A stretch of 64,000 bases of DNA from contig JAQGDQ010000192.1 of NCBI GenBank assembly GCA_030141605.1, positions 310,001 to 374,000 of the forward strand. Reading direction: 5' to 3'. Both the position numbers and the translations under genes were made by a program. This stretch comes from Tubiluchus corallicola. Its lineage: Eukaryota; Animalia; Priapulida. The notes under the pieces are model-generated. The model did no database searches. It worked only from the letters and a program-made list of their open reading frames with translations, and was not told the origin of the DNA. Numbering within the stretch: position 1 is the stretch's first letter; each line of letters starts with the position of its first letter. This document shows positions 4,096-56,290 of this stretch, one piece after another.

Positions 4096-4213
4096 ATGGA
4101 GGCAGCACACACCAAGAGTCCCCGGGAAGTTTTAGATTTTTTCAAAGTGAATGAAGAAACAGGACTAAGCCATGAACAAGTTCAAGAATACCAAGAGAAA
4201 TATGGTCCTAACG
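4096..4213 (+). CDS. SERCA: SERCA coding exon 1 (MEAAHTKSPREVLDFFKVNEETGLSHEQVQEYQEKYGPN)
   Basis: gccATGg context, typical SERCA N-terminus, 118 nt, donor G|GTAAGT, phase 1. Confidence 0.95.
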
Positions 4214-7059: not shown

Positions 7060-7300
7060 CATCATATATCATCAAACTGGTTTAGGAGTAACAAATTATC
7101 ACTGAATGCTTCCCAAATTAAATATGTTGTTTTTAGATCAAGAAACAAGAGAATGCCAAAATTTAACATTACAAATTGAAAATAGCAACATTCAACAAGT
7201 AAAACAAATTAAATTCTTAGCTATTATCATACCTGAATACTTAGAACAAATATCTCTTATATCAGACTCAAAATTGCTAAAAATATAGGCATCATTGTTA
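7060..7300 (+). mobile_element. Decayed non-LTR retrotransposon (LINE) reverse-transcriptase C-terminal remnant
   Basis: Frameshifted peptides NWFRSNKLSLNASQIKYVVF and IQQVKQIKFLAIII resemble the WFxxNKLSLNxxKT and VxxxKFLGV segments of CR1/L2-group RTs. Confidence 0.7.
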
Positions 7301-10300
7301 CCGTGAACGTAGTATTATGCAATTAGAAAATTTAATTAATTGAATATTGCAGTGCTTATGTATGAATGCAGTAATAGACTATTTCCTACATTGTTTTGCA
7401 AATCCAGTCAAATTGGCATCTAAGAGACATTATAATGGATATAATCAATACATTGTGCCTTTCTGTAGAACCAGCATATAGCTAAAACTTTTTTTATAAT
7501 ATTTCAATGACCAAAAGTCTGGAATGAGATTGGTTAATCTACAAAAAATAGCAGATGCATTACTAGATTTTAAAAATGCTAAAAAATCAACTTTGAATAA
7601 ATACCATTGAGTAGTCAAAGTTTCTAGCAATAGTGCTCACAGTAGTGGCAAAACAATCCAAGTATCTTAATCCAATTATCTTAATTCGTGTACTCACATG
7701 CCTACTATAATGACTAATGTTTTAGGAAATAATAGTCTTTGTATCTTTTACGTCATAAGCGAACTTTATTCATTATATTATTCCACTCAGAAACACTAAA
7801 TGTTTTCTTTGTCACAGTATCACCTCATAATTTTCAGTTTATTTTCCTTATTTTTTTTACTTTCACGCGATATGACAGTCTAACAAGCCCTGTTTTTTGA
7901 TTGCCGGCAACACATTTACATTTATCTATAGGCAAATATACTGTGAGGCGTTTCTTGTACAGAAACAATAAAAATAATTTGTATTGTGTTCATTGTAGCC
8001 CTTTCATTGTATTTTTGTACACAAAATTAATGTAAATGTGTTATGTCGCTTATTTTTAAGATTTTTCTGGCTAGCGCCAATCAGTCTTTGCGTGCTGGTC
8101 TCAACCCAGCTAAAGTAAAATTATTTGTGGAATGCAATGTATGCAAGTCTGAGAGTGGAAGAGATCTTTGCATAGCACCTACGTAAACTCATCAAAATCG
8201 TCTATATAGACATCAAATATGGGAATGTTAATACAGAAGATATTAATGCATTAATACAGGATTAGCAACTTCCACATTCAGGTGAGGGAAGTAGGTTGTC
8301 CTAAACTGATTAATAAAAACGCTCAATGGCAGAAGTAAAACATTAGGTTAGGAGGACAGTGGTTTTTAGTTTACAGCTTATGCTAAACTAGGTGACAAGT
8401 TGGTTTTTTAGCTATATTGGTTGTAGTGTAGGTATCTCATTTTTTCTGCAAATACACTAACAGTTGTCTTGTAAATGTAAATTAATTTGCTGCTGATTAT
8501 ATGGAGATTTAAAGCAAAAATTAGATGAAAACGGACGAGAGCTGTGATATAATATTAATGTCTTATCCTTCCATCTTATACATTGGAGAGTAAAGAGAAT
8601 TTAAAACGTATTGCACAAATACATTGCACTAGGTAACAATTAGCAGTCTGCATCCTTATCCAGCAGTGCTAACATTTTGCTATCTGTATTATTTTACAAA
8701 TTTTTGATATTGTCGATGGTTTCTAATGTGCGTTAAGTAGATGCTGTGTTAAGAATTCTTCCACTGCATACTTTACATCCCGCAAATTATTTTACTGATT
8801 GGGGTGGTGTGCACGTACCTAGAGACTGATTGGTATTAGCTGCAAAAATGCTGTAAACCAAGAGCAGTCTACTGGTGTTGCAATGAGGCACATCTTTCCG
8901 TTTAAGTTTTCTGCATGCAATGAGACCATTGAGACCACTGAGTTAATCTTAGATAAAAGTGAGTTTAACCAAACTCAGTACATGTAATTAATTTAATGTC
9001 TGTGTGAGATAAAAGATGTGGGCAGCGGAATGCATTGTAAGCGTCGAAGATGCAGATACACAGGTAGCCTAACGTCTGCATCATTGGCAAAAGGAGAAAC
9101 AGATGTTCATTGAATGCAAATTTATTACCTATTATCTTCTCTTATAATCTAAACAATTTCTGTGCTATAAATTTTCATCACTCAAGTCTCTTTTTTTACA
9201 AATAGATATATTTTAAACTCAGATAAAACTATACAGTTAGACATTTTGGATCTATTACAATAAAATACATCGTCCTTTGAATCTTTTAAGTAAAAAAAGA
9301 AAACTTAATTTAAATGTTTTTTCTGAGTGTAACAATAAAAAGCTGATGCGAGCACTATATTACTCTATCTTCTTCGTTCTGTCATTCTGATTTCAACTTT
9401 TAAATGCTGAAATTTTGTTTACAGTCAACAAATTTTCATGTAATTTATCTTATCGTTTCTTAATGTTTACCATTTTGATTGTAAAATGAGTGGATGGCTT
9501 GCTTAAATTACATTACACTAACTTTAGCCAACTTACATTCAGTTTTATGCAATGTTAGTCAGTTATTTACTGTTTAGTACATACATTAATAACTGACTAT
9601 GTGTTTTAGTTTTAAAAACGAAAAAATTCAGATATTTGGTTTGAAAAGTACTCCTATAACATAGAGCTGGGCAAAATAAAAGTCACTTAGTAAACGTTTC
9701 CAAGAAGCCAACTCATTTGGGTAATACAAGAAGCCAGTGTGCACTGAGCTGGTAACACAATCCAAACCCTAGACTTTGTGACCTATTTTCAGCCACCTCT
9801 CAGCACGAAGATTTACCCTGTGGCATGCATTCGTAGCACTCGCAAAGTACATGAATAAAAGTGGTTACGAACCTACTGTATTTATTCAACTAGCGGGGTT
9901 TCATTTAACAGTGTTACAGGAAATATGCAGGGCTGGTGTTAAAACATTTACAAACTTCTCTTCGGTAATAGCCACTATCAAATCATCAGTTTATTATAAG
10001 GAGTAAATACCTACTGTCATCGAGGCATCAGTATTCCCATAAAATGTTTAAAAAATTGGAGTCAGAATTCGTGTGCTGCTACCGTTGTCATTTCAAAGAA
10101 ATATAAATTTTAGTTGTTTCAGATAATTCGAAATAAAGTACTGAATAGACTAGCCTTGTTGCATTTGTGAAAGATACACAAGTATCTGGGCATTGAATAG
10201 GTTCACTTCATGTTCCAAATGGATATCTGTGGTGTAGATTAGAACTAAGGTTGGTGTCCAAAACATCTTAGTTGTGGTGACACTGCTGATTGTTGAATAT

Positions 10301-11508: not shown

Positions 11509-11526
11509 AATTACCGGCAGAAGAAG
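11509..11526 (+). CDS. SERCA: SERCA coding exon 2, 18-nt microexon (ELPAEE)
   Basis: ttttttttcttttgcag|AATTACCGGCAGAAGAAG|gtgagt; supplies the conserved ELPAEEG and keeps phase 1. Confidence 0.93.
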
Positions 11527-15850: not shown

Positions 15851-18800
15851 TTAGATTCAATCAGTGTACTACAATACTTTCTCTGTTCTGGATTCTGTTC
15901 AGTTTCAAATCAAGTAGTGAGTGCCTTTTAACTGTGGTCTGTTCTGTTTATTTGTTAACCTACTTATTAGATTGTTATCTGCCTTAAAGATGACATTTAC
16001 TATCATGACAAACGTGCTTTAATTAATCTGTAAGAATCCCTGTAAGAATTTGTTAAAGCTATGTAGAAAAGTTGAAGACATTTTGTATTAATCAAAGTTT
16101 GCAAATAAAAATGGTTCTAAAGATCAATTTTTTGACATTAGGAAAAATGCAGATGACAAAAAATTTGTCATGTTGTTGATTTCTGCGATATCTGAATGCC
16201 GCCTTCTGTGTTGATGGAAGATTTAAATCTTCCTTGCTAGATATGCTGTCTTAGAAATAGCACAGCAACTAAAATATTCATTCTTTGCATGAAAAACAAG
16301 GCAGTACTTTAGATCCTGCTGTAGTTTAGGTAACGACATTAGCAGTGTTAAGGTACAATTCCATGTGTACATAATGTGCAATGCATTAACGCGTGATCCG
16401 CTTTCACTCGAACATGATCACTATTGTCCGAACATGATCACTTTTGCCTGAATACGCATCACGCAGCAATACGCAGGAAACTGGTCTAGGTGATTTACCG
16501 AGCTTCAAGTTTCCAGTGATCATTTTAACTGATTGGCTTTCTCGAAATTCTGGTTAGGTGAGTTTGGTCCCTTCTTCCATTTGAGCTTTCGAGAGGTGAA
16601 CAAAGCATGTAATTATGTGTTATGAATCTAGTTGCAGTTCTTTCACTAAAATTAACGAATGCACATGCAATGGCATTGTTTTCTCTCCAGCCAAATTTTG
16701 TGCGCCCAAAACCTGCTATTCCTTTTCTGCCTGATAGTACGATAATAAGCTAATGCCATTGTTGTAATTATCACACTGAAATTTCGATATAGAGGCATCT
16801 CTTCCAAAAAACATTACACACAATTTTCACAAACATTAATCAGAAATGGCCGAAACGGCTCTGTGAGCTTTAGCTTTATTAATGCACATAACTTTCATGG
16901 ACATATGGAAAAAGTCAATACGAATCACGTATTACAGATCACATGCACATAGAGTTCTACCTTAAGTCACCGAATACATCATACATCAAATTGGTTATTC
17001 ATTATTTTTAAGCCAGTCAACTCAGAAAGACCTCTTACAGAAAGTGACTTCCCTTCTCTTGCATGGATTAACAGTCAAAACATTAGAATCATTTTGCAGA
17101 AGATCACAGCTACAAACTAAGAAAGACACAAAATTCTGATGAAAATCCTTTTTGTAGCTATATCTTATCTTCTGCTGAAAACCTAGTGGATGCTGGCAAA
17201 TGTGATTACAAAGAATTACTAACTTTGTTGGATGTAGCATGGTGGTTCTGTATGACTCTGTGGTGTCCAGTATGCACAGTATATGACAGCCGGCTGATCA
17301 TTTGTTCCACTTTAGCACTAGTTTACGGCTACTCCAGGGAAACCAAAAATGAAAATTATTTGGACCCAATGTTCTTTTAGCTTACAGAATTCATGTGAAA
17401 ACGTGAAAGTGTCAATATAGACCACGGCTCGTACAAGGTAGTGTTTGTGACTAGGGTCTCGTTCATGTTTACATGGTAAGAACACATCCTGTGCTGTGGC
17501 TCATAAACTAACCATGTTAAGAAAACATTTCTTTTAGGGATATAGATACAGGCTGTTTATTAAGTATTTTTACTTATGAAAACTCATAAACCATCAATTT
17601 TGTTTATGCGTGCTTTTAGTTGCTGCACACTCAGTGGAAAAATTCCTTGTCAAGTTGTGCTATACTCTTTCAATTTCATTTGGCAAATAAATAAATAAAT
17701 ATGTCAGTATTCGATACGAGTTGGTCCAATTTCTTAGACCAAGAGATTTGAAGACAAAAAAGGAGAAAGATGGGCAAGCCAATGAACTTTTACATTTGTT
17801 TAGACTAGCTTTTAATATTTCAGCGTCAAACACTTCCATAACTTTGCTAATCTCTTGAAATTGTGACTATATGTTCTAAATTAGTTATTAATGAAAAACC
17901 CAGAAGCATTTATAGCAGTGTACTACGGACACTGTTAAATTTGTCATGTACAATTTGACAACTAAAAATTTGATTCAGCTTTGTAAACTAGTGTCATCAA
18001 ATTTTGGATCACTGAATAATAATAGCTAGCCAGGCAGATTACAATAATTAGAAGAATAAAAATTGAGATCTGATGCGAATTTTTTGTATCTCCTCTTTTG
18101 AGGTGTTAATATTAATTTAGTTGCGCTTGGCAAGTACTGAAGAAATGCACTGATAACTTACACTTTGCGAGCGCTGTTTGCAGAAAATTACTGCTGATAT
18201 AAGTTATTTTATGATTTTTTTATCATTCACTAAGCCACCCTGCGCATCTGTTAGTGTTATATTTGTTGTAAGCCTCGTTTCAGTGCAGCTGTACAATGTA
18301 TTAAACTATGCAGCGAAGGTTGTCCTGACATTGAGTCCGGCTTTAGGTATGGGTGGCAGCAGCCATGGGAATAAGAAATAAGTAGCTATTATGAACAGAT
18401 TGCAGCATGCTGACTCGTTTTTTCTCTTACACGTAAGACGCATTTCATAGCAAATCCTCGCGGAAAATGCATATCACTGCCTGGGAGCATTTATTATTAC
18501 AGCCGTGGTTTTTCAGCGCTGCTACACAGGGCGATCTGCTGTTCTTGCTGAAGCCGAGTTTTCATGCTCAGCGAGCCAAGAGAAAATTTTCCAACTGTGT
18601 ACTGACTAAAAATACCTTACACAAAAATGGTTGCGGGGAAATCCGATCATAATGTACTGCATTAAAGGGGGTCTCTATGAGCTTGTAGCTTTGGTATTGT
18701 TCACTATAAATAAAGCTATCTTGCTGGTGAATCTGGTTTTGAGACGAGTGCTTTATCTGTCTGAAGGTGATGGTAAAAGGCAGTCGTTGTTTAGTGTAAC

Positions 18801-19917
18801 AACGGTCAGGGCAAACCAAGGACAGCAAAATCCTTGTGAAATTGATAAAGAATGAGCTCAAAAACTATACCGCTTTGCCATTAATAATCCCATTATTCAT
18901 ACAACTGTTTAGCGCTCACATTCTTAAGCAATAGTGCATTTAATTAGTTTAGAAAAATGGTTAGGTAAAATTCATCTCAACTGAAAGACTCGCTGCCTGC
19001 AGTATCTACACTAAAAAGTGGTACAGCTAAATATAACCATAGTGTAGCACATTTCAAGGGCAAATGTCCACGAGATACATTTTAAAAGGTCAATTTGCAT
19101 GAGAAGTAGAATGAAGTCTAAATCATGAAGCGTAGATAAATAGGGAGGTTGCAAGATATTGTTAGAAATGTGGCTTCCTCATTTAGATTTTGTTTGATAA
19201 TTTTGTGATTAATATGTGTTTGTAATATAGCTTTCTCCTTTTGGTTTTGTTTGATAGTTATGTGAGCAATATGTGTTTGTAAGGCATCAAGAGGTAGTCT
19301 CGTCAAACATTTACAATTATTCTTGTGAACTGTGATTGTTGGTCTCTATTAACAGCCAGTTTGTGTTATTGTTTTTGTTTTTTTTGGAGAAGACATGTTT
19401 TGCAAACATCCAGATTGTTGGTTTAAGAACCTTTTTCTTTTAGTCCATCTGTTAGCAATTTTGTTAGGAAAAGGACTGACAAAATCGCCAAAATCACACC
19501 TGTTAGAGAGAAATTAAGTACACTTTATGTATTTGGTATTCTTGCCCACTATTTTTGCATAGTTTAACCTTGAAACCACATTGAATCTATGATTACATAA
19601 CTTAGCTCAACTTACGAAGCCAATGGCTTCTTCGCAGTGTATTATTGGGTATACTTTACATGTTTTCAACCAAAAGGTCAAGTCTTCATCTCACTCCCAA
19701 TCCCAGTAATTCTACCTCAATCCCTAACCGTTTGAAAATATTGGTAACAAAATTTAGTTCTCTGTCTGCTGGAGCTCTGCTTTAGTAAGGCAGATAAAAC
19801 CACCACTGCATTGCAGTCCTATGATCTTACCAACCTCAAAACAAACTTTTTTGAAAAAAGCTAAAGTGCAACAAGTATAAATAGAATGCCATGTATGGAA
19901 ACCATGACTGATAGTTC

Positions 19918-20030
19918 AAACCTCTATTACTAATATTTATAGGGTATAATTGTTGTAGTGATTGTAGTCTAGTAGTTAAACCTCTAGTACTGATAGGTAT
20001 ATGGTATAATAGTTGTAGTGATTGTAGTCA
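19918..20030. repeat. Two-copy tandem repeat, period 60 nt
   Basis: aaacctcta...ggtataat.gttgtagtgattgtagtc occurs twice. Confidence 0.8.
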
Positions 20031-20322
20031 AACTTACAAAGAGTCAAAGTTTAAGAGTGCATTGTTTTTAATTATTGCAGTAATATAGTGGCCATTATGA
20101 TGGAGCTACAACTATATTGTATCACTTTATAAGTTTGTGTGATTTGTTTGGTTGGTTGTAATATGTAAAACATTTGATAAATGTAAACCTCTAAATCACA
20201 TCTAGCAATATGTAAAGAAGTAAATCTACTTCTAAAACTGTTGAATTATATCAGAAGAATTCATAAATTTTTTGCTGAATTTGTGAAAATGTTCATTATG
20301 TTTATTTATGCTTTTTACACAG

Positions 20323-20405
20323 GTAAAGCTTTATGGGAACTCATCTTGGAGCAGTTTAATGATCTGTTAGTCAAAATTTTATTATTAGCAGCTGTTATAT
20401 CTTTT
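20323..20405 (+). CDS. SERCA: SERCA exon 3a ([28 protein letters not shown]), canonical-like copy
   Basis: 83 nt, ag|...|gtaagt, phase 1 to 0, M1 helix. Confidence 0.95.
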
Positions 20406-21672
20406 GTAAGTATCTGTATGTAAAACTTGTTTAAACACGTTTGCTGCATGTGCTCATACTTTTATATCATTTTTCAGTATGAAAATAAATCAAAGTAGTT
20501 TTTTTAAGACCGGCTATATTAAAGAACTACTTTTAAATGTACTTCTACTTTTTTTGCATTTTTGATTATTTAGCACCCTATAAATTTTAATTCAATTTGA
20601 AATTTTGTCAAATATTAATGTTGTCCACATTTTTTCACGTGCTTGGAGAGTTGAGTTGAAATGCAACTTTATTGCCTTTTAAGCATTGTGTCCGGCCTGC
20701 ACCGTTTTCATGTCTGGGCTCATTTGCTTTCTTTTCAATTACATTTTGCTTATTGGTACTTTTCACGGTGTTCCTGTTGGGATGTGTGTGCAACGAAATA
20801 GAATTTTGCTTATTATTTTCCCATGTCTTTGGTCACCAGCTGTGGTACTTTTTGCATCAGCTGATACCCATTTCCTGTGGATCTTCTGCTCCGTCGTCTG
20901 GCATATTTTACGTGCTGTCATAAATTTGTGGCTTCGACACGCTGTGTAATTTTTAGAATATTGACAAGATTTTATTTGTGGAACACATCAAGATTTCGAA
21001 AGCCGTTCTCGTGCTTGGCTTGCTTGCATAAATAGTAAAACGATCTAAAACAGGAAATTTTAGCAGTCTTGCAAAGAAAGTGTGACGTTTTAAATAAATA
21101 GTTTTTTGCTGTTGTAGAAGGAAACAGATTTTCTGTTGTTCTTGCGCAATTTCTTGTGCAGTCAGAAGCTGCATGATGGGGTACCGATAAAAAATTTTGT
21201 GGTGCACTACAGATGGACACTCGTGTTGCTAACTGGACAGCTACATGGGTTTTGACTTTCAAATTTCCATCTAAAACTGCCATCTTGACGTTTGTCTGCT
21301 CTCCTCTCGTTCTTATGAAATGCTGAAAAACTGGAAAAGAATCCTTGCATCTAAAAAGCATTTTAGATGGCTTTTTTCAGTTAATCAGTATGTTCTTTCT
21401 CGCATATAGGCTATGGCTGTGACATCTGATCTGTTGAGTTTGAATGAAATCGCCGTTTTAATAAACTGCCTAGAAAATTAGTGTAACATTTTCCATGTAC
21501 AACTTGCACTACAAGGTTGACAATAAATTTATGTAACGGAAAAAATTTACGTAACATAAAGGTAGAGGTGCAGTCGCAATTTCAAGAAACCGGTTTTGTA
21601 AAATATGAGCACATGTCAGAAAACGTGTAGTTGTCGGAATTAGTTTTTCACTGAAATTTTTTGATTTTGCAG

Positions 21673-21755
21673 CCACTCCACTGTGGAAGCTATTTCTTAA
21701 CCAGTTTCTACAACCGCTGCCGCGCATTTTGCTATTGTCGGCTTTTATCTCATTT
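21673..21755 (+). CDS. SERCA: SERCA exon 3b (ATPLWKLFLNQFLQPLPRILLLSAFISF), alternative duplicated copy
   Basis: 83 nt, ttttttgattttgcag|...|gtgagt, same phases as 3a, 15/28 aa identical to 3a, no stop or indel. Confidence 0.88.
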
Positions 21756-23591
21756 GTGAGTATGTTCAAACGAGAAAGATTGGCCAAAATATCGAATTTT
21801 TTAAACAGAATTCGTGTCACTTTGGTTGACGTTGTGCAAATTACAAACTTTACAAATGAAATATCTACTCATTTGGCTTATGTATTCAAAACTTCTTCAA
21901 GTACTTGATTTAACGTTGCAGTTGGCCAATCTTTAGACCCGACCTGTGAACAGATGCTGCAGTTTTTTTCAACTCAATCTCGCCTTTTCTGCTATTGTCA
22001 TTATACGTAGTTGCGTTGATACTTTGCGAGACTGGTTAAGCTACTGCTTTCTCTTCTATGCATCTATATTCTAAACCTCTGGTTTCTAATATTACCTCGA
22101 TAAAAGTTTATGACGCATACTTGACACTTATTTTTAAACCTATCTTTCGCATTATGGTGGTAAAAAGGTATTAATCGTATCTAATCGTGTCAGGTTAAAG
22201 CAGAATTTCCGTGGCAGTTTAGCTGCTGGTTTAACATACCGCTGTGCTATCTTGCGGCACCTATTTTTATTTCCCTGAATCCTGCTTTGCATTTTTTTAA
22301 TACTTTGCTTTCGAATACTGATTATATAAAATTCAAAGCAGATTTTCATGTATCTAGGTAAAGTGTGAATGCCAGTTGTGTAAAATTACATTTTTTGTGG
22401 GCCAACCATGAAACTTCGATAGCATTCCAGGCTGTACCTATTTTACCTGTTGAGGAAAGATAGTTCCTGGTTGCTGAAGTGGGCCTATTTTATCGATGGC
22501 GTTTTGGAATATGTCTAATTTATTTCAGCAGCCATTTTTTTCTAACTAATTATGTTTTACCAATTGACTTGCAACAAGAATGAGTGAGTAAAAATGTAAA
22601 AGGGACAATTTAGTTGACTTCTCTTAAATTATTTTTATGTTGCAGGACCTTGCTCTATGTTACACACTACAGTGTTTATACTGGTGCATTTTTATTTCTT
22701 ACATAGTGTTTCAATGTTTTGTGTTTACAGATTTTTTTATATATACGGTCACAATGTTAAATTTTATTTTGGCATTTTAAGACACTTATAAATTAGTGTG
22801 GATTTTATTGCTTTGGTGTATTATCATTATTCCTGTGTGCTATAAGACGTCTTTTGTTCATTGTTTATGTATGGTTGGTGAAATTATAAGATTTGAAACT
22901 ATTTCTATTAAAAAACATATGTACCCTATATTTCAAGTTTCTAGATAATACAATATTTCAGTTTAATTGTCAAAATCCATGATTTACACCCACACATTCA
23001 GTGCCTAAAGACTCTAGTTTTGTTCATACCGCAAACATACTTGCATTCACCGTACTGTCATTTGTGGGCAGATTATTGAAGTTACTTAGTAGCTTGAAAA
23101 TGTTCTTCCATTGCAGTCTAATTGAGGTTATGAATTATACATTTTTATTAAAATTTTGATTAAAACGTTTGTTCAGTTTAAAATTATAAGTTTGAAATTC
23201 AGATACAGTACCTACTTTGCTCGTTTTTTTTGTTGCTTACCGACTGAACTTTTCAACTTCTCATGTTATGTCCTCTCAATACCAAATTTTTCTTAAATAA
23301 CAGTGACCAAACATGATTTTTTTGTCTGCAAGTTTAAACTATTTGAGTGATTCGAATTAGAAAGCATCATAATTTTGAAGATTTCCAAACTGCTACGGTA
23401 AATGCATTTAAAAATTATTTATGGTAATACTAAATTGTAATTGTTGCAAAACCTTTTCAGTGTGCATATGCTAGCAATAAGGTGCACACTTCTTAATTGT
23501 TTAACTAATGCAAAGTGTAATTTCTTAAAATGTAATTTTTTGTTTTGTTATGTTACATCATAAAGTATTTTTGTGTTTGTTTTCCATATAG

Positions 23592-23702
<111 letters not shown>

Positions 23703-24506
23703 TGAAATTTACTTTGCTAAATGGGTTGTATTGTTTATTAATGAATGTATGATATGACAGTTAATCCAATGGATAACTAAACCTTTGTCTAAATGGAACA
23801 TGTTAAAAGTTACGTTACTGAGAAATAATCTTTTCACAGTTCCAGCAATTGATGATGATCGTGAAATGGTCAAAGGTTATATGAACCAGACAATGCATTT
23901 GTGTACAGTTGACAAGGCTATCAGCCCAGCCCATGCTGTTGTAACCTAGTTCATTTTTCTTGTTCCCAAGCAAAATTCTGGTAGTAAATCACTCTACATC
24001 ACACATACTAAAACATAATTAAGCAAAGTCCATGTAACACAACTGAAGTTACTGAACTGATGCCACAGATGGCTTTGCTTTACCCACACGTCTTGTGGCG
24101 GTTGTAGTTAAGATGCGTTGCTCTGGTTAACTTAAGCTTTGACGTGCAACAACTGTGTGCGCGCACAACGAAACGTGAACAGGCTTATTGTTTATTTTTA
24201 TTTTTTTCTACATAGCAAATTGGCTCACAAATGCTAAAATATTGATGTGTATCTGTGATTTACAAGCATAAAGTTTTTGTTTTGTGATGATTTTGCAAAA
24301 GTGGCAGCTGTTGTAAAATTTCCTGTATTAAATTTTGAAAACTGACTTCTTTGTGATTTAATATTAAACTTTTATTGAACAAATGAAAAATCCGTTAAAA
24401 AAATTAAACACTAACGTGTACAACATAAAAAGTCAGCAAGATTAAGAGAGTGGCTATCTGACATCTGTCTTGTGGTCAGTGTAAAATCACAAAAATGTGC
24501 AGCTAA

Positions 24507-24782
<276 letters not shown>

Positions 24783-25459
24783 TGAAGTGTTCATCTATAG
24801 AGAAATCATTAATGTGATTGTAAACTTAAAAATATCTGATAAGAGTAACAATGTTTCACTTTATAACCTTGAAATATCCTGAAATAATACTCTGTTCCAC
24901 ACTATGAAAAGAAAATGATATACATTTGGTACACTACATATCAACCTAATTTTTCTTTTCGATAATTGCTATGAACTACAACTATTATACAGATAAGTAA
25001 ATGATGGCAAGGAAGAGGGTCCCATAATGCTAAACCTTCCCTGCCAGGAAACAAAATGAAATCTCAAAATACATTCTCCGCAATTGTCTCAGCAAGTGTC
25101 TGGAAAAATGATGCTTCATCTTCACATGTTTTGTTTTTGAGCTGTCATTATATTGGATAAATAATGTGTTGACATAACATACATACTTAACTTTTGGTCT
25201 GGCTGGTATTAAGCTAATTCCCAGCACAAGAGAAATTAATGGAGACCCTAATTATGTAAAAATACTCTGTTGTGCATGAACAAAATTATCAAAACTAACA
25301 CAAATCAGATTGACAACTACATTTTAAGCTATAGCTACGATGAGTACTACAGATCTTTTTACTTATACACATGATATGGTTTAGTTTTAAAACATGGAGT
25401 TACAGTCAGAACATTTACATATTTCTACCTTAGTCAACTAATTAAAACCATGCATCTGA

Positions 25460-25702
<243 letters not shown>

Positions 25703-27005
25703 TAGAATTCTAAATGTAGTGAAAATGAAATACTTAATAATGCAAGTAGAATAAATTATTAATAGCACTAATGTCCATATTTAAATAAACTTACATATTA
25801 ACGATATCTGTTACAGTATATTAGTACATTACCAGTTGTGGGTTTTATTGTAAATTAATTTGAGTTTTATGACTTTGGCGGAAAAATCAGTTCTAAACAA
25901 AAATGTGGCTTTAATAGTACAGAGCATAGACTAGACAACAAGCTATCTGTTGCTGAGTTTAACTTTAGTGCCTCAATGTCTTGTTTTCCTAGAAGTTGTC
26001 CTTCCCGGAGGCTATCTGGGTGTCAAGTTTGTACATTTGTTGCCAACCGTTTTCTTATAATATTTTTTGGTCTTAGACAGTAATGAAACTGAGGTGCTTT
26101 CTGTAACTCCATAGAATAGAAAATGCCATTCCATTTATTATTTCTTATTAAATTATGCTTCATTGTGACAATTAAGTTGAGTTATTGTTTTGAATAATTA
26201 ATAAGAATACTCAGGTGGAATTAGCGTGCTACACTCATTGATAATGTGGCTGTTTTCCAGTTATTACTTTTTATTATTACAGGTTATTTCTAAAGTGACA
26301 TTTTTTATTACTGCTTCTTGAGACATAAGTGTAGTTCATTAATATACATGTATTTGCAAAGTGGTCTGTTATGTGATTCTTCTATTTTAGGTGATTCACC
26401 TATTTTTTCACTTTGATCATAGCATGCTTCTGTATAAATGTGTTTCCACGAACTTTTAGTGGGTTAATGTGGAGGTGAACACAGATTAAGATTTTTGTGA
26501 CATCGCTCTTTGTTTTTTGCTTTGAGCTAAAACAAAGCATACTATAGAGTGAAATATTACCATTATTTAGGAATGATTGCAATCCTAGGAAGCTGTACTT
26601 ATTGTTAACTAATTAAATGATGTTAACAACCTTTTATACTGCCAATAGTTATGTAAGTAAGGAATCTTTAAAATTGCAAGTAATGGCAAAGATATTGAGA
26701 CAAATCCATACCTGCTGATTTGCTGTTTTGTTTTAGAAACATAGCAGCAAAATTACAAACTGCTGTCAAATTTGTGCTCACCTCATGCTGGTAGCTAATG
26801 TCATATTTATAAGAGCTTTCTGCCCATGAGCAACCACATCTTCTTTTAAATATTTCTATTTATCTTTTTGTATACATTATTTTACACAAGTGTAATTTAT
26901 TTTGATTTCCATGCATAGTGTCTGCTTGAATAATGTGTAATTTATTTCCAGTTTTAATGCACATTGCCTGCATTATATTCTTTAAAAGATAAATAAATAA
27001 ATTAA

Positions 27006-27107
<102 letters not shown>

Positions 27108-28279
27108 TGATAAGCTGACAACTGGGCCTCTGTACATGCGCATGCCTTATATTGGCTACGGTAGAAAATGAAATTTGTGGAACAGAGGTTAATTTTGTAA
27201 TTTTGATGATTACACTGTGAGCAAACAAGGTTAAGAAACGAAAGTCATTTCATGGTAACTTATTCACCATGCTTACCATGCGGTGTTTTTTCAAAAATGT
27301 AATTTTTGTTTTTCGAGTTGATACAAAAACGTTTTAGTTTTTCTTTGAATTTTGTAAATTCGATAATTAAAGTTGGAAATAAAACTTGTCACCATTTCCT
27401 ATTTTTTGTAATGTAAAGAATAAGAAGTGGTAACAACAAGGTCTGCACTTTTCATTTCAAAGATACTCAATGATTTCATGGGTATTGTTTAGGACATAGC
27501 ACAAACACTGAAGAATTTCGTGGAAATTACATGTGATTGTTAACGTCTCTGCCAAAAAAGTATATTATTTAAGTGTTAATGAAATGAGCTTTTGTCACCT
27601 TTTCCACTCTTTTTGAATTTATTTAATAGGTCTGTAAACCTTAAGAAAAATCCTTTTTAAGGTCAATTCACAAACATCTCACAATCATGAATTTTTGTCA
27701 TTTTCTATTAAAAATAACAGTGTTTTTGCTGAACTCTAGTAGTTCATCAGGTATGAAGAAAAATGTTACTTTATGGTGACCTGCTAGTGTACAGTAGGAA
27801 TGTTGCTATCTTTTAATAAAAAAATGATGACAAATTTGGTGGTTATTGTGGGACATTTAACAAATTGACTCCGTTCTGGTTATATTTAGAATTTGAAAAC
27901 TATGTCTCATAATCATCAAAATATTAATAACCTCTGCTTCCTACAAATGACAGCTTCTCTGGTGCACACTGACACGTTAAGGCATGTATTAGAGTCTAGA
28001 CGTCACGGCAATAAGGCGGACAAATTTTCATTGTTCTTACACTTAAAAAAGTGTCCAAGAATCTTGAAAATTTGCATAATAACAGTAGAGCTTCTAGTGT
28101 TACTATCTGTAGATAAAACTTCGTTTCCTTTACAGAATTGCATGTGTTCTCGTGGTGGTGGAATTCTTCTTGCTTCTTCTTTTTTGTTTCACACGGGACA
28201 GTGGACATTAAGTTTCCGTATTTTTATGTGTCCGTAATAATGTTTCGCTTTTAACATGTTAGTTTCTGATTGTTGTTAA

Positions 28280-28387
<108 letters not shown>

Positions 28388-28457
28388 TGAAGTGTGACGA
28401 ATTTTTCACTTTTGAGACTTTGTTTCGAGTTTATCCTCTACTATTTTGTGTTGTTAT

Positions 28458-28532
28458 GCCTTGTGCAAATTTTGATTATGCAGTTTTACCTTGTGCAAAA
28501 TTTTGATTATGCAGTTTTACCTTGTGCAAATT
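28458..28532. repeat. Tandem repeat, period about 31-32 nt, just downstream of exon 7b
   Basis: ccttgtgcaaatttttgattatgcagtttta twice plus a partial third copy. Confidence 0.8.
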
Positions 28533-30974
28533 CTGAATGTGCCATTTTTTGCTTTATTCATTTACAATGTTGAATGAATGTTTTCAACTTTTTACACTTC
28601 TCTGCACAAATTATTAACTTTTTTCAATTCCTTGTTGAATGAATGAAATTTATTCTCTTCGGTTTATTCTTAATCCCTATACTGTCTTGCAGTGAGCAGC
28701 TTTCTATGTAATGAGCATTTTTCAAGAATTGGGATACTTTCTATAAACACTGTGGAGTTAGCATGTGAAGTGGTTAATTTTATGTCTGCTTGAATTTTGT
28801 GCGAATTTTCCATAAGTCAGGGTGCCTGAATAATAATCAAAATATGCGTAATTATTTTTTAATAATAGTACATATGCTTTCTCCATAAATAGCATTTCTT
28901 CCTTTGAAGGATTTTTCATCAACTACCACATCCTATTTTGAATACCTACATGAATAAACAGGTATATAGAGCTCATACGTTGTTATTTTTAACAAGGTGG
29001 CAGGGCACTTGGGGTAAATGTTTGCAAAGCATAAAGAGGAAATACACAGCTCTGATTGTCAAACTTGTTCTCATAAGGGAATGGACGAGGTTTAGAGCTT
29101 CGTTCAAAATTCATATGATAGCTCAACAAAACCTCCTCTATTTTTTGATACTTTTGATTGGACCCTGTCGGTTGCTAAAAGAAATGTAAATGAAAATGTA
29201 ACTATGAAAAGTGCCTTTTTTGGTATCACGATCAAGATGTCTTCAAAAGAAAGACGTTACTTTACAGTTTCTTTATGGATACAATACACTTGTGCTTGTT
29301 CGTCAAATTTTCCAAATCAGACCATATAGTAGTTTACAGTTTGTGTGTTAGATAAAATAGTACTTGTAGTGCGTAGGCTTATTAAGTATTATAACCTAGA
29401 GTGTTGACACCGTAAAAAATGATATTTTCTTTAAGTTGTTTGCCTAGGCTTATTGGGTTTACTTGGGCTTAACTGCTGAAGTTCTATGACCTGATAACAT
29501 ATACTCTTCTGATGACTTGTGCCTGCAAATGAAAGCAGAAAAAAATCACATCGTTTGTCATAGTATAAAGTTCAACATTGTACCAACAGTTCTGTTTCTT
29601 AAAACACATCTTCAGTAAACCAGAAAATTGACATTGAATGTGTGAACTGTTTTTTCTTTTATAATTTTAGAAGTACAATTATAGTTATTATTGGTGTGAC
29701 ACTTGCCAATTATTTTTTTTTTGGTGAAGAGCAATTCATATCAGCACTGTAATTTTAAGCAGACACAGTCAAAAGACTACCATAAACTTAAAACACCAAT
29801 CAAACATATCAGAACAGTTAAAAGCAATGATGGCATTTGCTTTTGCACAATTTAGCATACAAATACACAAATTCAAATTGCTTGGATGTAAATTTTTCAT
29901 CCAAAAGTCAAACTGAAACAGTGCATATCAAACACATTTTGTAAAAGATGTCTGTTGCTTGGCTGTAAAGTTAATTTATGTTCTAGCTGTAAACAGAAAA
30001 ATGAAACTTTGTCCGTAACAATGAATGTCCGTAAAAGTGTGAAGTGAGTTTCCTAACACACGGTTCTGGCTGCTTTTCATTAGTACTATAAATTATTATA
30101 TAGTACTACCATTAGTGAATAAAATTAAAATGATATACACTGCGAAATTAATGCTTTTGCTATTTCCAGTGATTCTGTAATAACAGGGGTGGCCCACTTT
30201 TTGTTTTGTTTCTTGTGTCGCAGTTTAAATGTGTTAATTTGCATGATGCATGATCTTTGGATTACTTGCATTGCACATTTGTTTTTTTCCAGTCATAGCA
30301 GTTAGTACTAGTAGTAGTTACTGAACCTGCCAAATGTTCCTGATCTATGGTGCATGCTGTGTAACTAATATTTTAATGCTGTTAACTTTTTGTTTTGTTT
30401 AAATTTTGTCTTTTGTGCATAATTGCACATGATTTGAAAAATACTACATGCACAATTCTAAACAAAACTTGACAAAGCTGTTACTGTATTAGTTAATGAC
30501 CAAGTAGTTTAAAGCGTGCTAATTACTTGTCAATAAACATTTGATCTTTTAGAGGTAATGATGAAAACATTCTGAAGTAGGCCAGAAGTTAATCCCTGCT
30601 TGTAAACATAATCATTTGCATTTAACTAGTGTAGGTCATGTAGTGGATAAGCTCTAGATTATTAACTAAGGAATGCAACACTTTTTTCATTGTCTGATAA
30701 ATTTAATATTTATTGGGCCTACTTAGTAATGTTTTACTATTAAATTTCTCCATTCAGTTAGAAAATTAAATGCATCGTGACATATTCAAATTCCTCAAGA
30801 TTAGTTATTTTATATAATTAAATTATACAATATAATTATGTTATATAATAAAAAGTATACGTATATTATGGATAGATATTTGTGAAGCTTAATTTGTTTA
30901 ACATGTCATCTTGTATACTTCACAACATATGAGAAAAGCCTTATTTTACTTAAATATTGTTTGCATGTCACTAG

Positions 30975-31041
30975 GGAACGAATGTTGCCGCTGGAAAAGC
31001 ACGTGGTGTTGTTGTAGGAACTGGCCTTATGACAGAAATTG
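30975..31041 (+). CDS. SERCA: SERCA exon 8 (GTNVAAGKARGVVVGTGLMTEI)
   Basis: 67 nt, AG/GT bounded, in frame. Confidence 0.94.
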
Positions 31042-31573
31042 GTGAGATTATCGTAATATATATCTAATACATCATTTTCATATCCTTATGCACAAAAACA
31101 AATTTTATCTTTTATGATGGAAAGCTTTAATTAAATTTGGTGCATCATAGAAAGAAAAGCACTTTATGCACAATAGAAAGTTTTAATGACTGCACAGAAA
31201 AATTGGATAAAAATCCCGATAAAGAAATGGAATGTTATTGTTCAATGAAGTGATTTTATTATTTAATTAAAAGGTGATTTTTAAAGCACTTTTTTACAGT
31301 GCTAATGCATTAGTGTTCATTAAATGTTGTAAAATCTCTGTGCTATAAATATGTTTTCCATTTTCTACAATGCTTTAGTACTATGGAGTAACTACAAATG
31401 CACAAGAAATGGGTCATTTGGTCCGCAGAAACATCACACTTAATTCATTGAAATTTCGTCTGCATAACTTTGGTAAAAATCCAAGAAATAGCTGCATTTC
31501 AAAGAACTGTGCTAAAAAAACCTGTAAAAAAGAACGGTTTCAGAAACAACGAATTAATTCTCATTGTTTGTGA

Positions 31574-31744
<171 letters not shown>

Positions 31745-32331
31745 TGAAACAACCCATTGGCTAGGAGCTTTCAAATTATTTAATGATATTTTTAATACTT
31801 AATAGTTATTATACTGTTCGTCACCACATCTGTCATCTGTTCTGCCTGCCACCCCAAGAAACTATTAGACCCAAACGAGTTTTTCCAACAGTAGTTACAA
31901 ATATGAACAACAAATGTAATTCAAATACAGAGTATTGTTCTAAAAATAATTTCCGCTAAAGTTAGTTTACAAGGCAGCAGCTCGAGGGGTTAAACTGTAC
32001 TTAATGTTTTAAAGCAACTGCTTGATTGCTCAGTTTCGATTATTTGTTTGTGCCACTTATATATGTGGAATGTAGACCACAGTCCAGAAATTTGGTTGCT
32101 CAAGTGAAATTTCGCAAGAGCGCTGTGAATTCATAATAGTTTCATCCGAAAAATACTAGAATGAAAAGCAAGCAGAATCTTACCAGTTCTATAAAGAGTC
32201 TGCAGTTCAGAGTTTGATAAACTTCAAATGTTTAGTTGATAAAAAATCTGGCAAAGTTTGATAGATGTTGAGCAGTTTAAGAGTAAATTTGACTATTTTC
32301 TTCTTTCATTATCAGTTAACCTTTGTTTTAG

Positions 32332-32511
<180 letters not shown>

Positions 32512-33578
32512 TAGTGTTTGCTGTTGTTAAAGCACAAGAAAACTTTTCATTTATGTAAAGTTTAAAAAAATTGTCTTGAAATTTCATACCACTTGCATTC
32601 TGTCTTATTGCATACACCACTTGTGTTAGTAGTAACGCTGTATAAAACTTGAAAATTTATTCTCCCGCTACGACCATTAGGCATAGCTATTCAGATAAGT
32701 CTTCTGAAACTTGTTTAGATAACAAAACGTAAAGTTTGAAAAAATAATCATAGCATCCGTAGTGCACACTTCACTATCTAAGCAAACTTTTAAATTACTG
32801 TATCTTGTCAATAAGATTAAAAATAGGTTTTTTGTTGAGTGACTTGTGTACACTTGAAAGGTGAGTCAGCGATATTTTTTACCAATTAGCGGGAATATTT
32901 TAAATTATTAATAGTTACCTAAGCCTTTCAAGCAACTAAACTAAGTAAAGTGACTTTGCATAGAAAGTTTTTAGGGATATAGTTAACATTACCTTTTCTT
33001 TCCCTTTAAACAAGCAAATTATGTTTAACCTGTTTCTGTGTGTTCTATCATTTAATCATGGTCTGTTGCTGTGACATATGTATATATAGCACTTGAAATA
33101 ACGTAAACTGTGTACATAAACGTAAACATGTAGAAACGTTACCACTAGCTTCTAGCTTGTTTGTATTGTAATTAGGTTTACAATAGTTTTCTTGTGCTGT
33201 ATACACCAGATAATTGCAAACTGCACTAAGTGAAGACATCAGTAATACCTATTTTTTACACTTGTAGATGTAAAACTTTCGCCTCGATACTTTTAAGGGT
33301 GACAAAAAAGGCATTTTACCTAGTATTCAATGACATTTTGAAAGTTAAATGTGAGGCAAAATTCTGGCATTAAAGTCCATCTGTCTTTTTTTTACAGAAA
33401 ATGCAGAAATTTGCACACAAAATACTGATAAAATTTATTTCGTGCCAATTAAGTGAAAAAGAAGTAATGATTTATGTCAAACAAAAGCTGCAAATTACAA
33501 TTTTTGTGTCAGCTCAGATGTGCAAATTTACTTATTTGCATAGGTGATACATCAATCTCATTTTGTAATAATTCATGA

Positions 33579-33728
<150 letters not shown>

Positions 33729-33868
33729 TAGCTATAATATTTTTTTGTTTAATCTACAAGTTGGATTGAGCCATGTTTGATGATCCAATTCCATTTACTT
33801 AAAAAACTGGTATGTACAATATCAAATTGGTTTTCAGTATTAATTTGTTCATTTTCTCTGGTTTTTAG

Positions 33869-33957
33869 TTTTTTATCTTTGAATCGGCTGAAGGCGACAA
33901 CTGCACATTTCATCAGTTTGATGTTAGTGGTTCTACGTACGAGCCGGTTGGAGATGT
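33869..33957 (+). CDS. SERCA: SERCA exon 12 (FFIFESAEGDNCTFHQFDVSGSTYEPVGD)
   Basis: 89 nt, ends in phase 2 with gtaagt; GSTYEP motif. Confidence 0.93.
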
Positions 33958-35000
33958 GTAAGTAAATTCATTTCTAATTTGTCTAATTTTTCATCGAATA
34001 GAAATGCCCTTTACTTTTTCAGAGTGTTTCAGAGGAAAATAAAAAAATTGGTACTATTAGTGATATGTACATCCTACTTGAGAAGCATAAATTCATTTTT
34101 GAGCCAGAATTTAAGCATGACTAATGCCATTTTCTACAGGTGGTCCCAACACCCAACTTTCATTCCTGACTGGAATAAAATTTTCACTAGTTTTTCTGTC
34201 CAATATGTATGACTATAGATCCTTCTTAAGGTGGATGAAACAAAATACTAATATCTTGATAACTCACCTATATTCCTTCATTCATTAATTATTATAATTA
34301 CACCATTTTTATTAAATTGATTTAGCTCATACCTTGTCATTTTATCCAATTTTCTCTCTCAGCCCTAAAAAGCCTAAAAGGTCTCCAGCTGACCCCCATT
34401 AATTCTGTAATAAAAGTTTCCAGTGCGGTAGAGAAAAAGTTTAGCAAGCAATCCTATTTTTGTTTGTTCTGGCACAGTTTAAGGTAAACATTTGAATTAT
34501 GTGCAATGTTAGAAACTGGTTTGTTTGATTACGTGGATGTACTGTAGTTTAACAACTCATTATGCTACCACATTTTCCATTTCCAGTGACATGTGGGTCA
34601 AAGTCATTTTTACGCCTTTCCAGTCTACTCACAATTTATGCACAAACACATCAGTCCTCGCGTAACTGTTTTGTGCTGCCAGAACTTGCATTATGAAATT
34701 CGTTATATGTTTTAATGTTGGGCAGAGATATAGAAATGCTCAATGTAAATTATTTTTTAAATGGCAGACTTATTTTATCCAATCTTACCAGTTTTGCCAT
34801 TTTCGTAAACATTTCTATTGAAAAAATATTATAGCACATAAGCAAAAAAATGTTTTTATCGTGTTAGGATGCCAGAACATAGTTAAGCTTCATTTATGAA
34901 AATCTGTTGTCATGTTAGACCTGCATTTTCATTGGCAAATTTCTTTGCAAATATTCATTGGCGAAAGTAGTTTCATACTATATTTGGGGTGATTGTTTAG

Positions 35001-35103
35001 GATGGTTAATGGCAGGAAAATTAAATCGGAAAATTATAGTTGCTTGCCCGAGTTAGCAACTATATGTGCAATGTGCAATGAATCAAGCGTTGATTTTAAT
35101 GAG
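35001..35103 (+). CDS. SERCA: SERCA exon 13a (MVNGRKIKSENYSCLPELATICAMCNESSVDFNE)
   Basis: 103 nt, tttag|...|gtattc, phase 2 to 0, ELATICxxCN motif. Confidence 0.92.
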
Positions 35104-36532
35104 GTATTCTGGCATGTTTGAGTGAATGTTTTTTGTCTTGGCAAGTTGACATTATTATTCGTCAACCAAAATTTTTACACCGAGAATTATTAGTGATCTT
35201 GTTGTGGAATAACTGATTTAGCAAATAAAATGGAACATTCTTCAGAGGTATTTGTAGCGAAATATGCACACCCGAAGAAGAGAAACCATTTTATTTGCGA
35301 TTGTTTGTTTTAATTGTTTTGCACTTTATTCGGCTTTTCCATTTACTAACTAACAGTTAGTTAACTTGCTCGAGATGCAACTAATGCTGTAAAAACAACC
35401 CATATTTTTTTATTGATTGGTTAACATGGTTACTGGCCTGACTGACCGACCGACCAACTGACTTATCGACACATATACCAACTAAGTGGGGAATGCGATA
35501 TTTTCCTAGAAAACCAATTTCTGAGTTTTTTTAGAAAAACTGAGTCAAGGACACATATAGAAGTCAACTTCTATCAACAATAAAATCAACTAATCATAAG
35601 GATTTCATATATCAGTTTCTTTGCTATATATTTTTAAGAAATATATTTAAATAAAGTAACCAGGCTGAAGCTTTTAGTGGCTTCATTTAGCCTTTAACAA
35701 AAAGCCCGCTGAAGCAACAAAGCCAAGATAATGTAGTTGAAAAGCCTTACTTTAAGACGATGGACAGAAATCATCGGGTATATCTGTATCAGTTTTAATT
35801 TCACATTTGCACAAGTTTAAATAAAAGCTTCATGGAAAAACCTGAATGATATTACGTTTGCATTCTGCATAAGATTCGGCATAATGTTAGCGTTGTTGAA
35901 TCTCGTCTTTTTAAGGTTGCTAGGTTGTCCAAGTTTATTTTGTGCAATTCACCCAAGTTTTTTATTCGCATTGTGCTGATGTGCATATTTATTGAAGAAC
36001 TGAAAATGCACTGAAATGTGTTCTTAAATAATCTAAGGTTTAGACTGCAAACCTAGAGCTGGTGGCTTTTCAGTTTTATACATTTTTGACGTACATTGCT
36101 TAATTTGAGATCACTTATTATGGATCTTGAATGATTTAAAGTGTCACCTACACATCTAGGCTTTTATTCCAAAAGCTACTTGACTCTGTTAATCGGGTAT
36201 TTGTAAATATTGCATAAACATCACTAATGGACGTGGATTATGAGACTCAATTGGCATCGCAAGCTGAGCTAAGTACTTCGTCGCAATTGTACAATGCCGA
36301 TTTTTCGACTGACTGTATATTGAATTGCAGATGTTTTCTATGTCGTTACATTGTGCATTTTGATTGTTAAATAGAATTTAAATCACTTGCGCATTTCCGT
36401 ATTATCCATAATCACTTTAGTTGTAAAGTGTAACACTTATTACATAATGTACTTACTAGTTATAATTTAATGCATATTATTTTTTTGTTGCATCCCATTC
36501 CCATTAACTTGCATGGTGTGCTGTGTTTATAG

Positions 36533-36635
36533 AACAAAAAGCGGTCGTGCAATAAATGTGGATGATTATGACGTACTCAAGGAGTTTGCTTCCATCTGTT
36601 GTTTGTGTAACGATTCCTCCATCCATTACAGCGAT
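36533..36635 (+). CDS. SERCA: SERCA exon 13b (TKSGRAINVDDYDVLKEFASICCLCNDSSIHYSD), alternative duplicated copy
   Basis: 103 nt, ttatag|...|gtaaga, same phases as 13a, 14/35 aa identical, ICxLCNDS motif. Confidence 0.9.
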
Positions 36636-37773: not shown

Positions 37774-38010
<237 letters not shown>

Positions 38011-46315: not shown

Positions 46316-46534
<219 letters not shown>

Positions 46535-49974: not shown

Positions 49975-50105
49975 CTCCCACAGCTCGTGAGTTGATGATG
50001 ATGCAAGCTGGTCCGCGTGCAAGTTTTAGTGGATATGGTCCACCCGGACTCGGTGGCTACGGTATGCCTCCGCCACCTATGTTTAACAAATACGATAGAT
50101 GGTGA
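49975..50105 (+). CDS. SERCA: SERCA alternative terminal exon (APTARELMMMQAGPRASFSGYGPPGLGGYGMPPPPMFNKYDRW*)
   Basis: Acceptor cttttgtttcag, branch-like CACTAAT at 49914-49920, phase 1 matches the donor at 46433, GC-rich coding-like island in AT-rich surroundings, 43 open codons to TGA. Confidence 0.8.
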
Positions 50106-52948: not shown

Positions 52949-53488
52949 TTAGCTATCCTCGCTTTCTCTTATTAGTCTAATGAGCTTTACCAGATTTTGC
53001 TGTGTCTGCTCCAATGTCGGATTCAGCTCTAGAGCTCTCTGGTAAGCTCTATGTGCATCATCGACTCGTTTCCACCGGTGGTACAATACACCAAGGTTAC
53101 CCCAATAGTTGCCATTTAGTTCATCTGCATTGATAGCTACCAAAAAATGTTTTTCAGCTTCAGAATATTTTTCTAGCTTTCCTAAGATGTTTCCAAGATG
53201 AAAATGAATAGACGATGCTTCAGGAAGTACCCGGAGTGCTTTCCTCGCAATGTTCTCAGCATCTTGCAGCGAGCCATTTTTTTCTAGCATGACAATCATG
53301 TTATTCCAAGCATTAACGTGACTTGGACGCAGTTGTGTAGCATTTGTCCATGCATTCAATGCTTTCTGATGCTGCTGTTTCTCAAGATATAGGTTGCCAA
53401 GGTTGTAATAGCAGTCAGAATAGTTGCGTCGGTGCTTAAGGGCAATGATGTAACTCAGTTCGGCTTCTTCATATTTCCCCAAGCTGGT
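52949..53488 (-). CDS. TMTC4: TMTC4 coding exon 3 (C-terminal TPR repeats to stop)
   Basis: 540 nt from ctttag|ACCAGC; DCYYNLG, ALNAWTNAT, AWNNMI and GNLGVLYHRW resemble TMTC4 specifically. Total about 855 aa. Confidence 0.93.
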   Translation of the reverse strand, partial: TSLGKYEEAELSYIIALKHRRNYSDCYYNLGNLYLEKQQHQKALNAWTNATQLRPSHVNAWNNMIVMLEKNGSLQDAENIARKALRVLPEASSIHFHLGNILGKLEKYSEAEKHFLVAINADELNGNYWGNLGVLYHRWKRVDDAHRAYQRALELNPTLEQTQQNLVKLIRLIRESEDS

Positions 53489-53901
53489 CTAAAGCAAAAG
53501 CATTCATTAAAATTACAAAAATGCATCAAATATTCATCTAGAAAGTTAAAATTAGGAATAAAATTGAAAATTCACATATCTTTCTACGGATCAGAGTGGG
53601 AAATTATACCAATTTGGCATCTAACAGGATCAGCATACCTTATGGGTTGGTGATTTTATGTTAACACTTTTTACTAGCATCATAATGTAATTTTTTATTC
53701 ATATTTTTCATGAGATTTCATGATCTTTATGATAACTGAAAGTGATTTTGTCATAATTTAGTAAGATTCTTAATGTGTTATTCATTTATTTTGTACATTT
53801 TGTTTTACATTGATAATATTTAATTTACATATTGTAGTGAGCTTATAAACAATAAATTCTAACTGTAATTGTGACTGTGACTGTGTTATAAAAAAACAAT
53901 A

Positions 53902-56134: not shown

Positions 56135-56290
56135 GGATTTAATAAATGGCAACTTTTAGTAGGTTAATGTACTATACAGTTCCGTTCCAGCAATAGTTGC
56201 AACAATACGCGGCTGGATTTAACAAATGGAGCTTTTAGTATGTTAATGTATTATATAGTACCATTCCAGCAATACTGACAACAATAAGTG
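56135..56290. repeat. Two-copy tandem repeat, period about 79 nt
   Basis: ggatttaa.aaatgg..cttttagta.gttaatgta.tata.agt.cc.ttccagcaata occurs twice. Confidence 0.75.

Follow-up and report, generated by a model that had tools for sequence, protein, structure and literature searches.

Three tandem pairs of internal exons in a SERCA gene of the priapulid Tubiluchus corallicola, with alternative splicing of one pair in a close relative

Can a single SERCA gene yield several different calcium pumps by exchanging internal segments of the protein? The question is raised by a 64,000-nucleotide stretch of DNA from Tubiluchus corallicola (assembly GCA_030141605.1, contig JAQGDQ010000192.1, positions 310,001 to 374,000 of the forward strand), referred to as the window herein and used for all positions below. 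It contains a SERCA gene in which exons 3, 7, and 13 each occur twice. An initial annotation made from the sequence alone took the two copies of each exon to be mutually exclusive. Our analysis establishes such use for exon 13 in a close relative and suggests that the other two pairs are probably used in the same way.

Results

Structure of the exon pairs

The gene lies on the plus strand, extends from its start codon at 4096 to the last stop codon at 50105, and comprises 25 exon positions and an alternative last exon 26. For all five constitutive exons tested, the top-scoring family model was the SERCA-type TIGR01116 and not PMR1/SPCA or PMCA, and the P-type motifs TGES, DKTGT, TGD, and GDGVND were all found in the gene product. 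The motifs for the two-site calcium ligands (M4, M5, M6, and M8) were also found and are located in constitutive exons; we take the ligands themselves to be E309, N768, E771, N796, T799, D800, and E908. The gene is therefore a SERCA, a P2A-type calcium pump, in agreement with the initial annotation, and calcium transport is predicted for each of its isoforms. Translation of the full gene model gave no internal stop in any of the 16 combinations of a or b copies and C termini, with predicted lengths of 1027 amino acids for the exon 25 read-through end and 1037 amino acids with exon 26. The window protein is 63 to 77% identical to 71 full-length SERCAs, among which it has no close relative, and trees (omitting 21 of the 71 homologues as redundant or partial) place it within the protostomes, near nematodes, with weak support.

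All six duplicated exons are on the plus strand. Exon 3a (20323-20405) and exon 3b (21673-21755) are each 83 nt long and encode a canonical and a divergent version of M1, respectively (SERCA1a residues 47-73); exon 3b has an open frame with AG and GT sites and is presumably used. Exons 7a (27010-27095) and 7b (28284-28369), each 86 nt, encode the part of the actuator (A) domain that begins with the ES of TGES (SERCA1a 183-210), and use of 7b is likewise presumed. Exons 13a (35001-35103) and 13b (36533-36635), each 103 nt, encode a segment of the nucleotide-binding (N) domain (SERCA1a 396-429). These coordinates and lengths, the AG acceptors and GT donors of all six exons, and the three domain assignments agree with what had been annotated. 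When both copies of a pair are included, the first stop falls at codon 103 (pair 3), 217 (pair 7), or 441 (pair 13), and when both are skipped it falls at codon 51, 206, or 419, which bears out the frameshift that had been predicted for either event.

The copies are far apart in sequence. Nucleotide identity between a and b is 44/83 for exon 3, 55/86 for exon 7, and 50/103 for exon 13, and amino acid identity is 15/27, 20/28, and 13/34. In tblastn searches within the window, the a and b copies matched each other with E values of 4e-8, 1e-12, and 1e-8 for pairs 3, 7, and 13, the next-best other match having an E value of 0.006. Profile hidden Markov models for 24 exon positions detected duplication of exons 3, 7, and 13 only; these profiles included the a and b sequences of the window itself, so that those scores are somewhat inflated. 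As previously noted, the flanking introns have no obvious similarity: five of six blastn comparisons of 400-nt flanking stretches gave no match at E<0.05, and the sixth gave matches of 15 to 17 nt (E 0.019). All three pairs thus consist of neighboring homologous exons that match in length and phase and have intact splice sites, and we regard the three-pair arrangement of this SERCA gene as confirmed.

Splicing of the duplicated exons

Transcript evidence was obtained from X2, a single RNA-like run of assembled contigs that carries the same species label and has exons about 5% diverged from those of the window. Its RNA nature is the guess of the tool that reported it and is supported by the spliced joints. 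Contigs drop rare variants; those of X2 are informative on the presence of a form and not on its absence. Among the joints listed, with GT..AG borders, are 3a to constitutive exon 4 (23592-23699, plus strand, 3' of the exon 3 pair), which runs from 20405 to 23592, as well as 6 to 7a and 7a to 8. For exon 13, joints are listed for both copies: 12 to 13a (depth 259) and 13a to 14 (depth 310) on one path, and 12 to 13b and 13b to 14 (depth 278), again with GT..AG borders, on the other. The paths converge on constitutive exon 14 (37804-37950, plus strand), whose contig depth of 580 is close to 310 + 278. Over its 103 nt, exon 13b of X2 has 3 differences from that of the window. A close relative thus splices 13a and 13b as alternatives, with contig depths that are about equal. 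Mutually exclusive use, which had been claimed for all three pairs, holds for pair 13; for pairs 3 and 7, where it is probable, the listed joints are those of 3a and 7a, and the X2 bins containing 3b and 7b have zero cover.

The claim that two C termini are made was borne out by a spliced joint between exons 25 and 26 (depth 306) and by contigs in the read-through untranslated region past exon 25. Exon 25 (46316-46533, plus strand) encodes a read-through C terminus with a hydrophobic segment (best 19-residue hydropathy 1.92) and has an internal donor after 46433. Exon 26 (49975-50105, plus strand) is an alternative last coding exon with an open frame and a soluble tail rich in Gly, Pro, and Met. 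This tail differs from the short, acidic or basic ones in the listed SERCA homologues, and the end formed by it has greater depth in X2 than the read-through end. Altogether, at most four isoforms are visible in these data, and the 8 internal and 16 total isoforms put forward earlier are an upper bound, free combination of the choices being hypothetical.

Constraint on the copies

Comparison of a with b gave proportions of synonymous (pS) and replacement (pN) differences of 0.91 and 0.32 for exon 3 (Fisher p 6e-6), 0.70 and 0.28 for exon 7 (p 8e-4), and 0.95 and 0.41 for exon 13 (p 2e-5). Synonymous sites are near saturation between copies (pS 0.70-0.95) and replacement sites are not (pN 0.28-0.41); none of the copies has an indel or a stop. 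This is the signature of purifying selection in all three pairs and agrees with the initial view that the exon copies were selectively conserved. We also simulated neutral decay of the b copy in 20,000 runs, scoring those in which the frame stayed open and second-position identity was as observed. Such runs made up 0.3% for 3b and 3.5% for 13b, and both exons clearly appear to have been under constraint over most of their history. The splice-site scores of all six exons are within the range of the constitutive exons of the gene; 7a and 13b have the weakest acceptors of the six and 7b the highest-scoring one.

Predicted changes in the pump

The remodeled M1 encoded by exon 3b appears to be the most unusual point of the locus. 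The two copies differ at 13 positions, 7 of which are at least 95% invariant in 67 to 68 homologues, and at 8 positions 3b has residues that occur in none of these homologues, including two prolines in M1. Exon 3b encodes no acidic residue, versus three in 3a, and loses the equivalents of Glu51, Glu55, Glu58, and Asp59. The prolines stand at position 60, which is the kink position Leu60, and at position 62. Einholm et al. are said to have described in 2004 that rabbit SERCA1a mutants of Asp59 and Leu60 release calcium faster. In the portions of the literature consulted, the four acidic residues line SERCA's access funnel for calcium (10.1101/696070), the M1 kink at Leu60 permits occlusion (PMC7733806), and Gln56 and Asp59 coordinate cyclopiazonic acid (10.1101/344911). 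Canonical exon 3a has a peculiarity of its own, an Asn at position 58 that is found in 0 of 68 homologues, Asp or Glu being usual there.

The 3b segment scores 25.3 bits against the Pfam Cation_ATPase_N model (cut-off 20.4). Against individual pumps it gives only weak matches (E 0.1-2.4), with 15.7 bits to SPCA1, 15.4 to LMCA1, and 15.1 to SERCA1a, while 3a scores 31 bits to SERCA1a and SPCA1 is not among the matches listed for it. With the M1 of SPCA1 (ATP2C1), 3b has Pro48, Lys51, Pro60, and Ser68 in common (4 of the 11 changed positions in 48-72), and with that of Listeria LMCA1 it shares a seven-residue run. Unlike either of these pumps, 3b begins and ends where SERCA exon 3 does, its C-terminal half is SERCA-like, and it is part of a pump that is otherwise SERCA. 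We rejected the idea that the 3b isoform is an SPCA/PMR1 pump, with a PMR1-type core and a single ion site, because the shared core is SERCA-type and only the M1 segment resembles SPCA1. The likeness would at most reflect convergence, and we treat it as a lead and not as a result.

The other two swaps are of different character. Exon 7b, which scores 35 bits to SERCA1a, is nearer the SERCA consensus than 7a by column frequencies. Exon 13a keeps Asp426 and Asn428, whereas 13b has His in place of Asp426 (Asp in 70/71 homologues) and Ser in place of Asn428 (Asn in 71/71). Two short pieces that match 13b (P0133 and P0135) likewise have His at 426. Asp426 is described, in the parts of two papers that we draw on, as contacting Arg134 and Arg139 between the N domain and the A domain (PMC7733806; PMC7583845). 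In the window protein, the equivalents of these two arginines are Lys.

SERCA loci elsewhere

Exon 14 was used to scan metagenome contigs; the best 80 of 203 matches were kept and gave 79 loci, many of them transcripts or short fragments that are unable to show a duplicate. None is a close relative of the window gene, the best of these matches reaching 75%. Six of the 79 carry tandem internal exon copies of equal length and phase, flanked by AG and GT, with lengths that are not multiples of 3. One locus (L017, 5507-19083) has two copies each of exons 9 and 12 and four of a 134-nt exon covering position 23; another (L039, 260-5149) has two copies of exon 12 and six of exon 16. The 134-nt exon, which encodes a luminal loop and M8, is present twice in the remaining four (L028, 8044-8809; L029, 8722-9654; L040, 9901-10833; L041, 6074-7455); L029 and L040 encode the same peptides and should not be counted as independent. 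In the tree, all six fall with Capitella (support 0.96). Where exons flanked by introns could be compared, exon 13 was single in 10/10 loci, exon 7 in 1/1, and exon 3 in 4/4, and therefore the annelid-like and window duplications arose separately. Internal exon duplication in SERCA thus recurs, and the set of three appears to be lineage-specific. The one tunicate-like locus spanning M7 (L071) gave a single match for the M7 exon. The architecture is less exceptional than first implied, given the tandem exon clusters at other positions in annelid-like loci.

Several candidate duplicates were discarded. L001 is a split exon and a false match, and L004 and L010 are whole-gene duplicates, a single contig carrying two complete SERCA genes one after the other. 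In L076 (648-701) and L078 (592-645), a partial exon 11 copy with a changed DKTGT lies just 3' of the intact phosphorylation-site exon. In L079 (13857-14090), an identical copy of exons 24-25 lies 2.4 kb downstream and is either a duplication or an assembly repeat.

Querying proteins with 13b extended by six intron codons from upstream returned one candidate and no match, and a representative search with 13b returned 11 matches, including 8 short pieces that read as single exon 13 frames and 2 unrelated repeat proteins. In named isoform pairs of two hemichordates and one crinoid, the differences are confined to the C terminus or its immediate neighborhood, and a Biomphalaria pair differs only in one stretch of exon 18, with no switch of exon 3, 7, or 13 in any of them. 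The exon 12 segments of three proteins of the Capitella group lean toward the annelid 12a or 12b type, by few residues.

Other features of the window

Exon 2 (11509-11526, plus strand) is an 18-nt microexon 5' of the exon 3 pair, in frame and with AG and GT sites; it is single-copy, and no second copy coding for a similar peptide was found between exons 1 and 3a. Two SERCA intron stretches (23435-24101 and 32106-33439) have contig depths of 3,000 to 7,800 in a second run, X1, versus mostly <30 elsewhere, and are high-copy repeats. Downstream, on the minus strand, lies a TMTC4-like O-mannosyltransferase gene (52949-59556) with one very long coding exon (647-codon open frame), whose best match is from Priapulus caudatus (575 bits, versus 463 for the next protein).

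Discussion

We favor, with a probability of about 0.6, an explanation in which this is one SERCA gene with three tandem duplicate exons, with either 13a or 13b in a given transcript and probably the same kind of choice for 3a/3b and 7a/7b. Exons 3b and 7b would then probably be confined to minor tissues or life stages, and a single isolated run of contigs is compatible with such rare or stage-specific use. How might one copy be chosen over the other? Steric exclusion needs a very short distance between donor and branch point, about 50 nt, and is ruled out by the introns between the copies, which measure 1267 nt (3a/3b), 1188 nt (7a/7b), and 1429 nt (13a/13b). For pairing of the Dscam docking/selector type, no intronic complementary match was found near pair 3 within 17323-23591; weak inverted intron matches near pairs 7 and 13 (E 0.024-0.29) leave no convincing complementary elements near any of the three pairs. 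Because the copies are too far apart for steric exclusion and docking-type RNA pairing was not found, we infer that splicing factors regulate the choice and that nonsense-mediated decay removes transcripts with both copies or neither.

The swaps would be expected to tune pump kinetics. Replacement of Asp426 by His in 13b would loosen the headpiece-closing contact of the N domain with the A domain. Exon 3b would strip the funnel through which cytosolic calcium enters of its negative charge and place a permanent proline at the M1 kink. The 3b pump would then bind and occlude calcium differently, and its sensitivity to cyclopiazonic acid would probably be lower. Two-calcium transport is predicted to be retained, since the ion-binding residues of M4-M8 are encoded by shared exons.

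Several observations weigh against this explanation. The X2 contigs span the 3a-4 and 7a-8 joints and skip 3b and 7b, and all evidence of expression comes from that one run of assembled contigs, from a relative with about 5% divergence in exons. The changes of 3b at 7 near-invariant positions also fit relaxed selection, and its donor (4.1) and acceptor (4.4) score in the lower part of the constitutive range. For 7b, neutral decay is not rejected, with 26% of simulated runs reproducing the open frame and second-position identity. The low pN/pS between copies would attest to past constraint and is compatible with recent silencing, and our searches yielded no orthologous locus with 3b or 7b. Lastly, all kinetic effects are extrapolated from mammalian SERCA.

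Much of this, namely the skipping in X2, the residues of 3b that no homologue carries (the two M1 prolines among them), and the decay result for 7b, would also speak for a gene in which only the exon 13 pair is live and 3b, 7b, or both are pseudo-exons, once functional but silenced since, in which no stop has so far arisen. We consider this unlikely. Both exons keep exact length, frame, and splice sites despite near-saturated synonymous sites, 7b is closer to consensus than the expressed 7a, and several changes in 3b lead to residues found in SPCA1 and LMCA1. Moreover, rare variants are dropped by contigs, and 13b is itself a live copy despite changes at invariant sites. The early stops that follow double inclusion would suit yet another role, in which the extra copies are poison exons that, when included along with the a copy, trigger nonsense-mediated decay and lower SERCA output. 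A poison exon has no need of the amino acid-level constraint seen in the SERCA frame, and 13b is spliced directly to exon 12, skipping 13a; this role is very improbable. Even less credence can be given to an assembly artefact or to interleaved pieces of a second SERCA paralogue, for which nothing was found; an artefact had been deemed unlikely from the outset. The copies are deeply diverged and lack similar flanks, the doubling is limited to three single exons, and an X1 contig is identical to 27461-28496, 7b included. For exon 13 such an origin is contradicted outright, as X2 joins both copies to the same exons 12 and 14.

Beyond the favored explanation of one gene with three alternative pairs, a bolder version can be entertained, although we doubt it. 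In it, all pairs would be live and combinable, 3b would provide a naturally occurring SERCA with a calcium-entry gate that, lacking an acidic funnel and kinked by a proline, has converged on the SPCA/bacterial design, and invertebrate SERCA genes would repeatedly have swapped vertebrate-style paralogues for internal exon switches. If true, these genes would constitute a natural library of gating and headpiece variants. The swapped segments hold residues that mutagenesis and structures of mammalian SERCA have addressed, among them Asp426, the stretch that follows TGES, and the funnel and kink of M1. An isoform without Asp426 is spliced at about half of the contig depth, and one without the whole acidic funnel is possible; both would allow direct and cheap tests of M1 gating and headpiece closure in the tuning of calcium pumps.

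How does this gene compare with known systems? The mechanism class, tandem mutually exclusive exons in a P-type ATPase, is known, and what is new is the presence of three clusters in SERCA. The portions of the literature covered held no description of internal mutually exclusive SERCA exons, most subscription journals being outside that coverage and public gene models possibly holding such isoforms uncommented. The single SERCA gene of invertebrates such as Artemia, C. elegans, and Pinctada undergoes C-terminal splicing like that of SERCA2a/2b (PMC3527596, PMC6987452). The window gene has this switch too, between a read-through hydrophobic tail and a spliced last exon; it differs from the invertebrate variants described in the sections of those papers available, which vary in the C terminus only, in also swapping internal exons. 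The annelid-like loci resemble it in their internal exon copies of equal length and phase with AG and GT flanks and differ in the exons involved (9, 12, 16, and the 134-nt exon at position 23), with up to six copies. They mark the SERCA gene as prone to internal exon duplication and, together with the window, indicate several evolutionary origins of internal exon swapping in SERCA, involving different exons. The nearest parallel outside SERCA is the arthropod Na+/K+-ATPase alpha subunit, for which the excerpts of one study describe tandem copies of one exon, 11a and 11b of NAK1 in a barnacle and four copies in Drosophila, with only one barnacle copy detected in complementary DNA (PMC3793950). 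Like the window gene, it is a P2-type ATPase with a tandemly duplicated internal exon of which one copy is used at a time. There, a single cluster is involved and the barnacle copies are highly similar, whereas the SERCA gene of the window has three clusters in three domains, with copies that are 38 to 71% identical, one of them encoding a remodeled M1.

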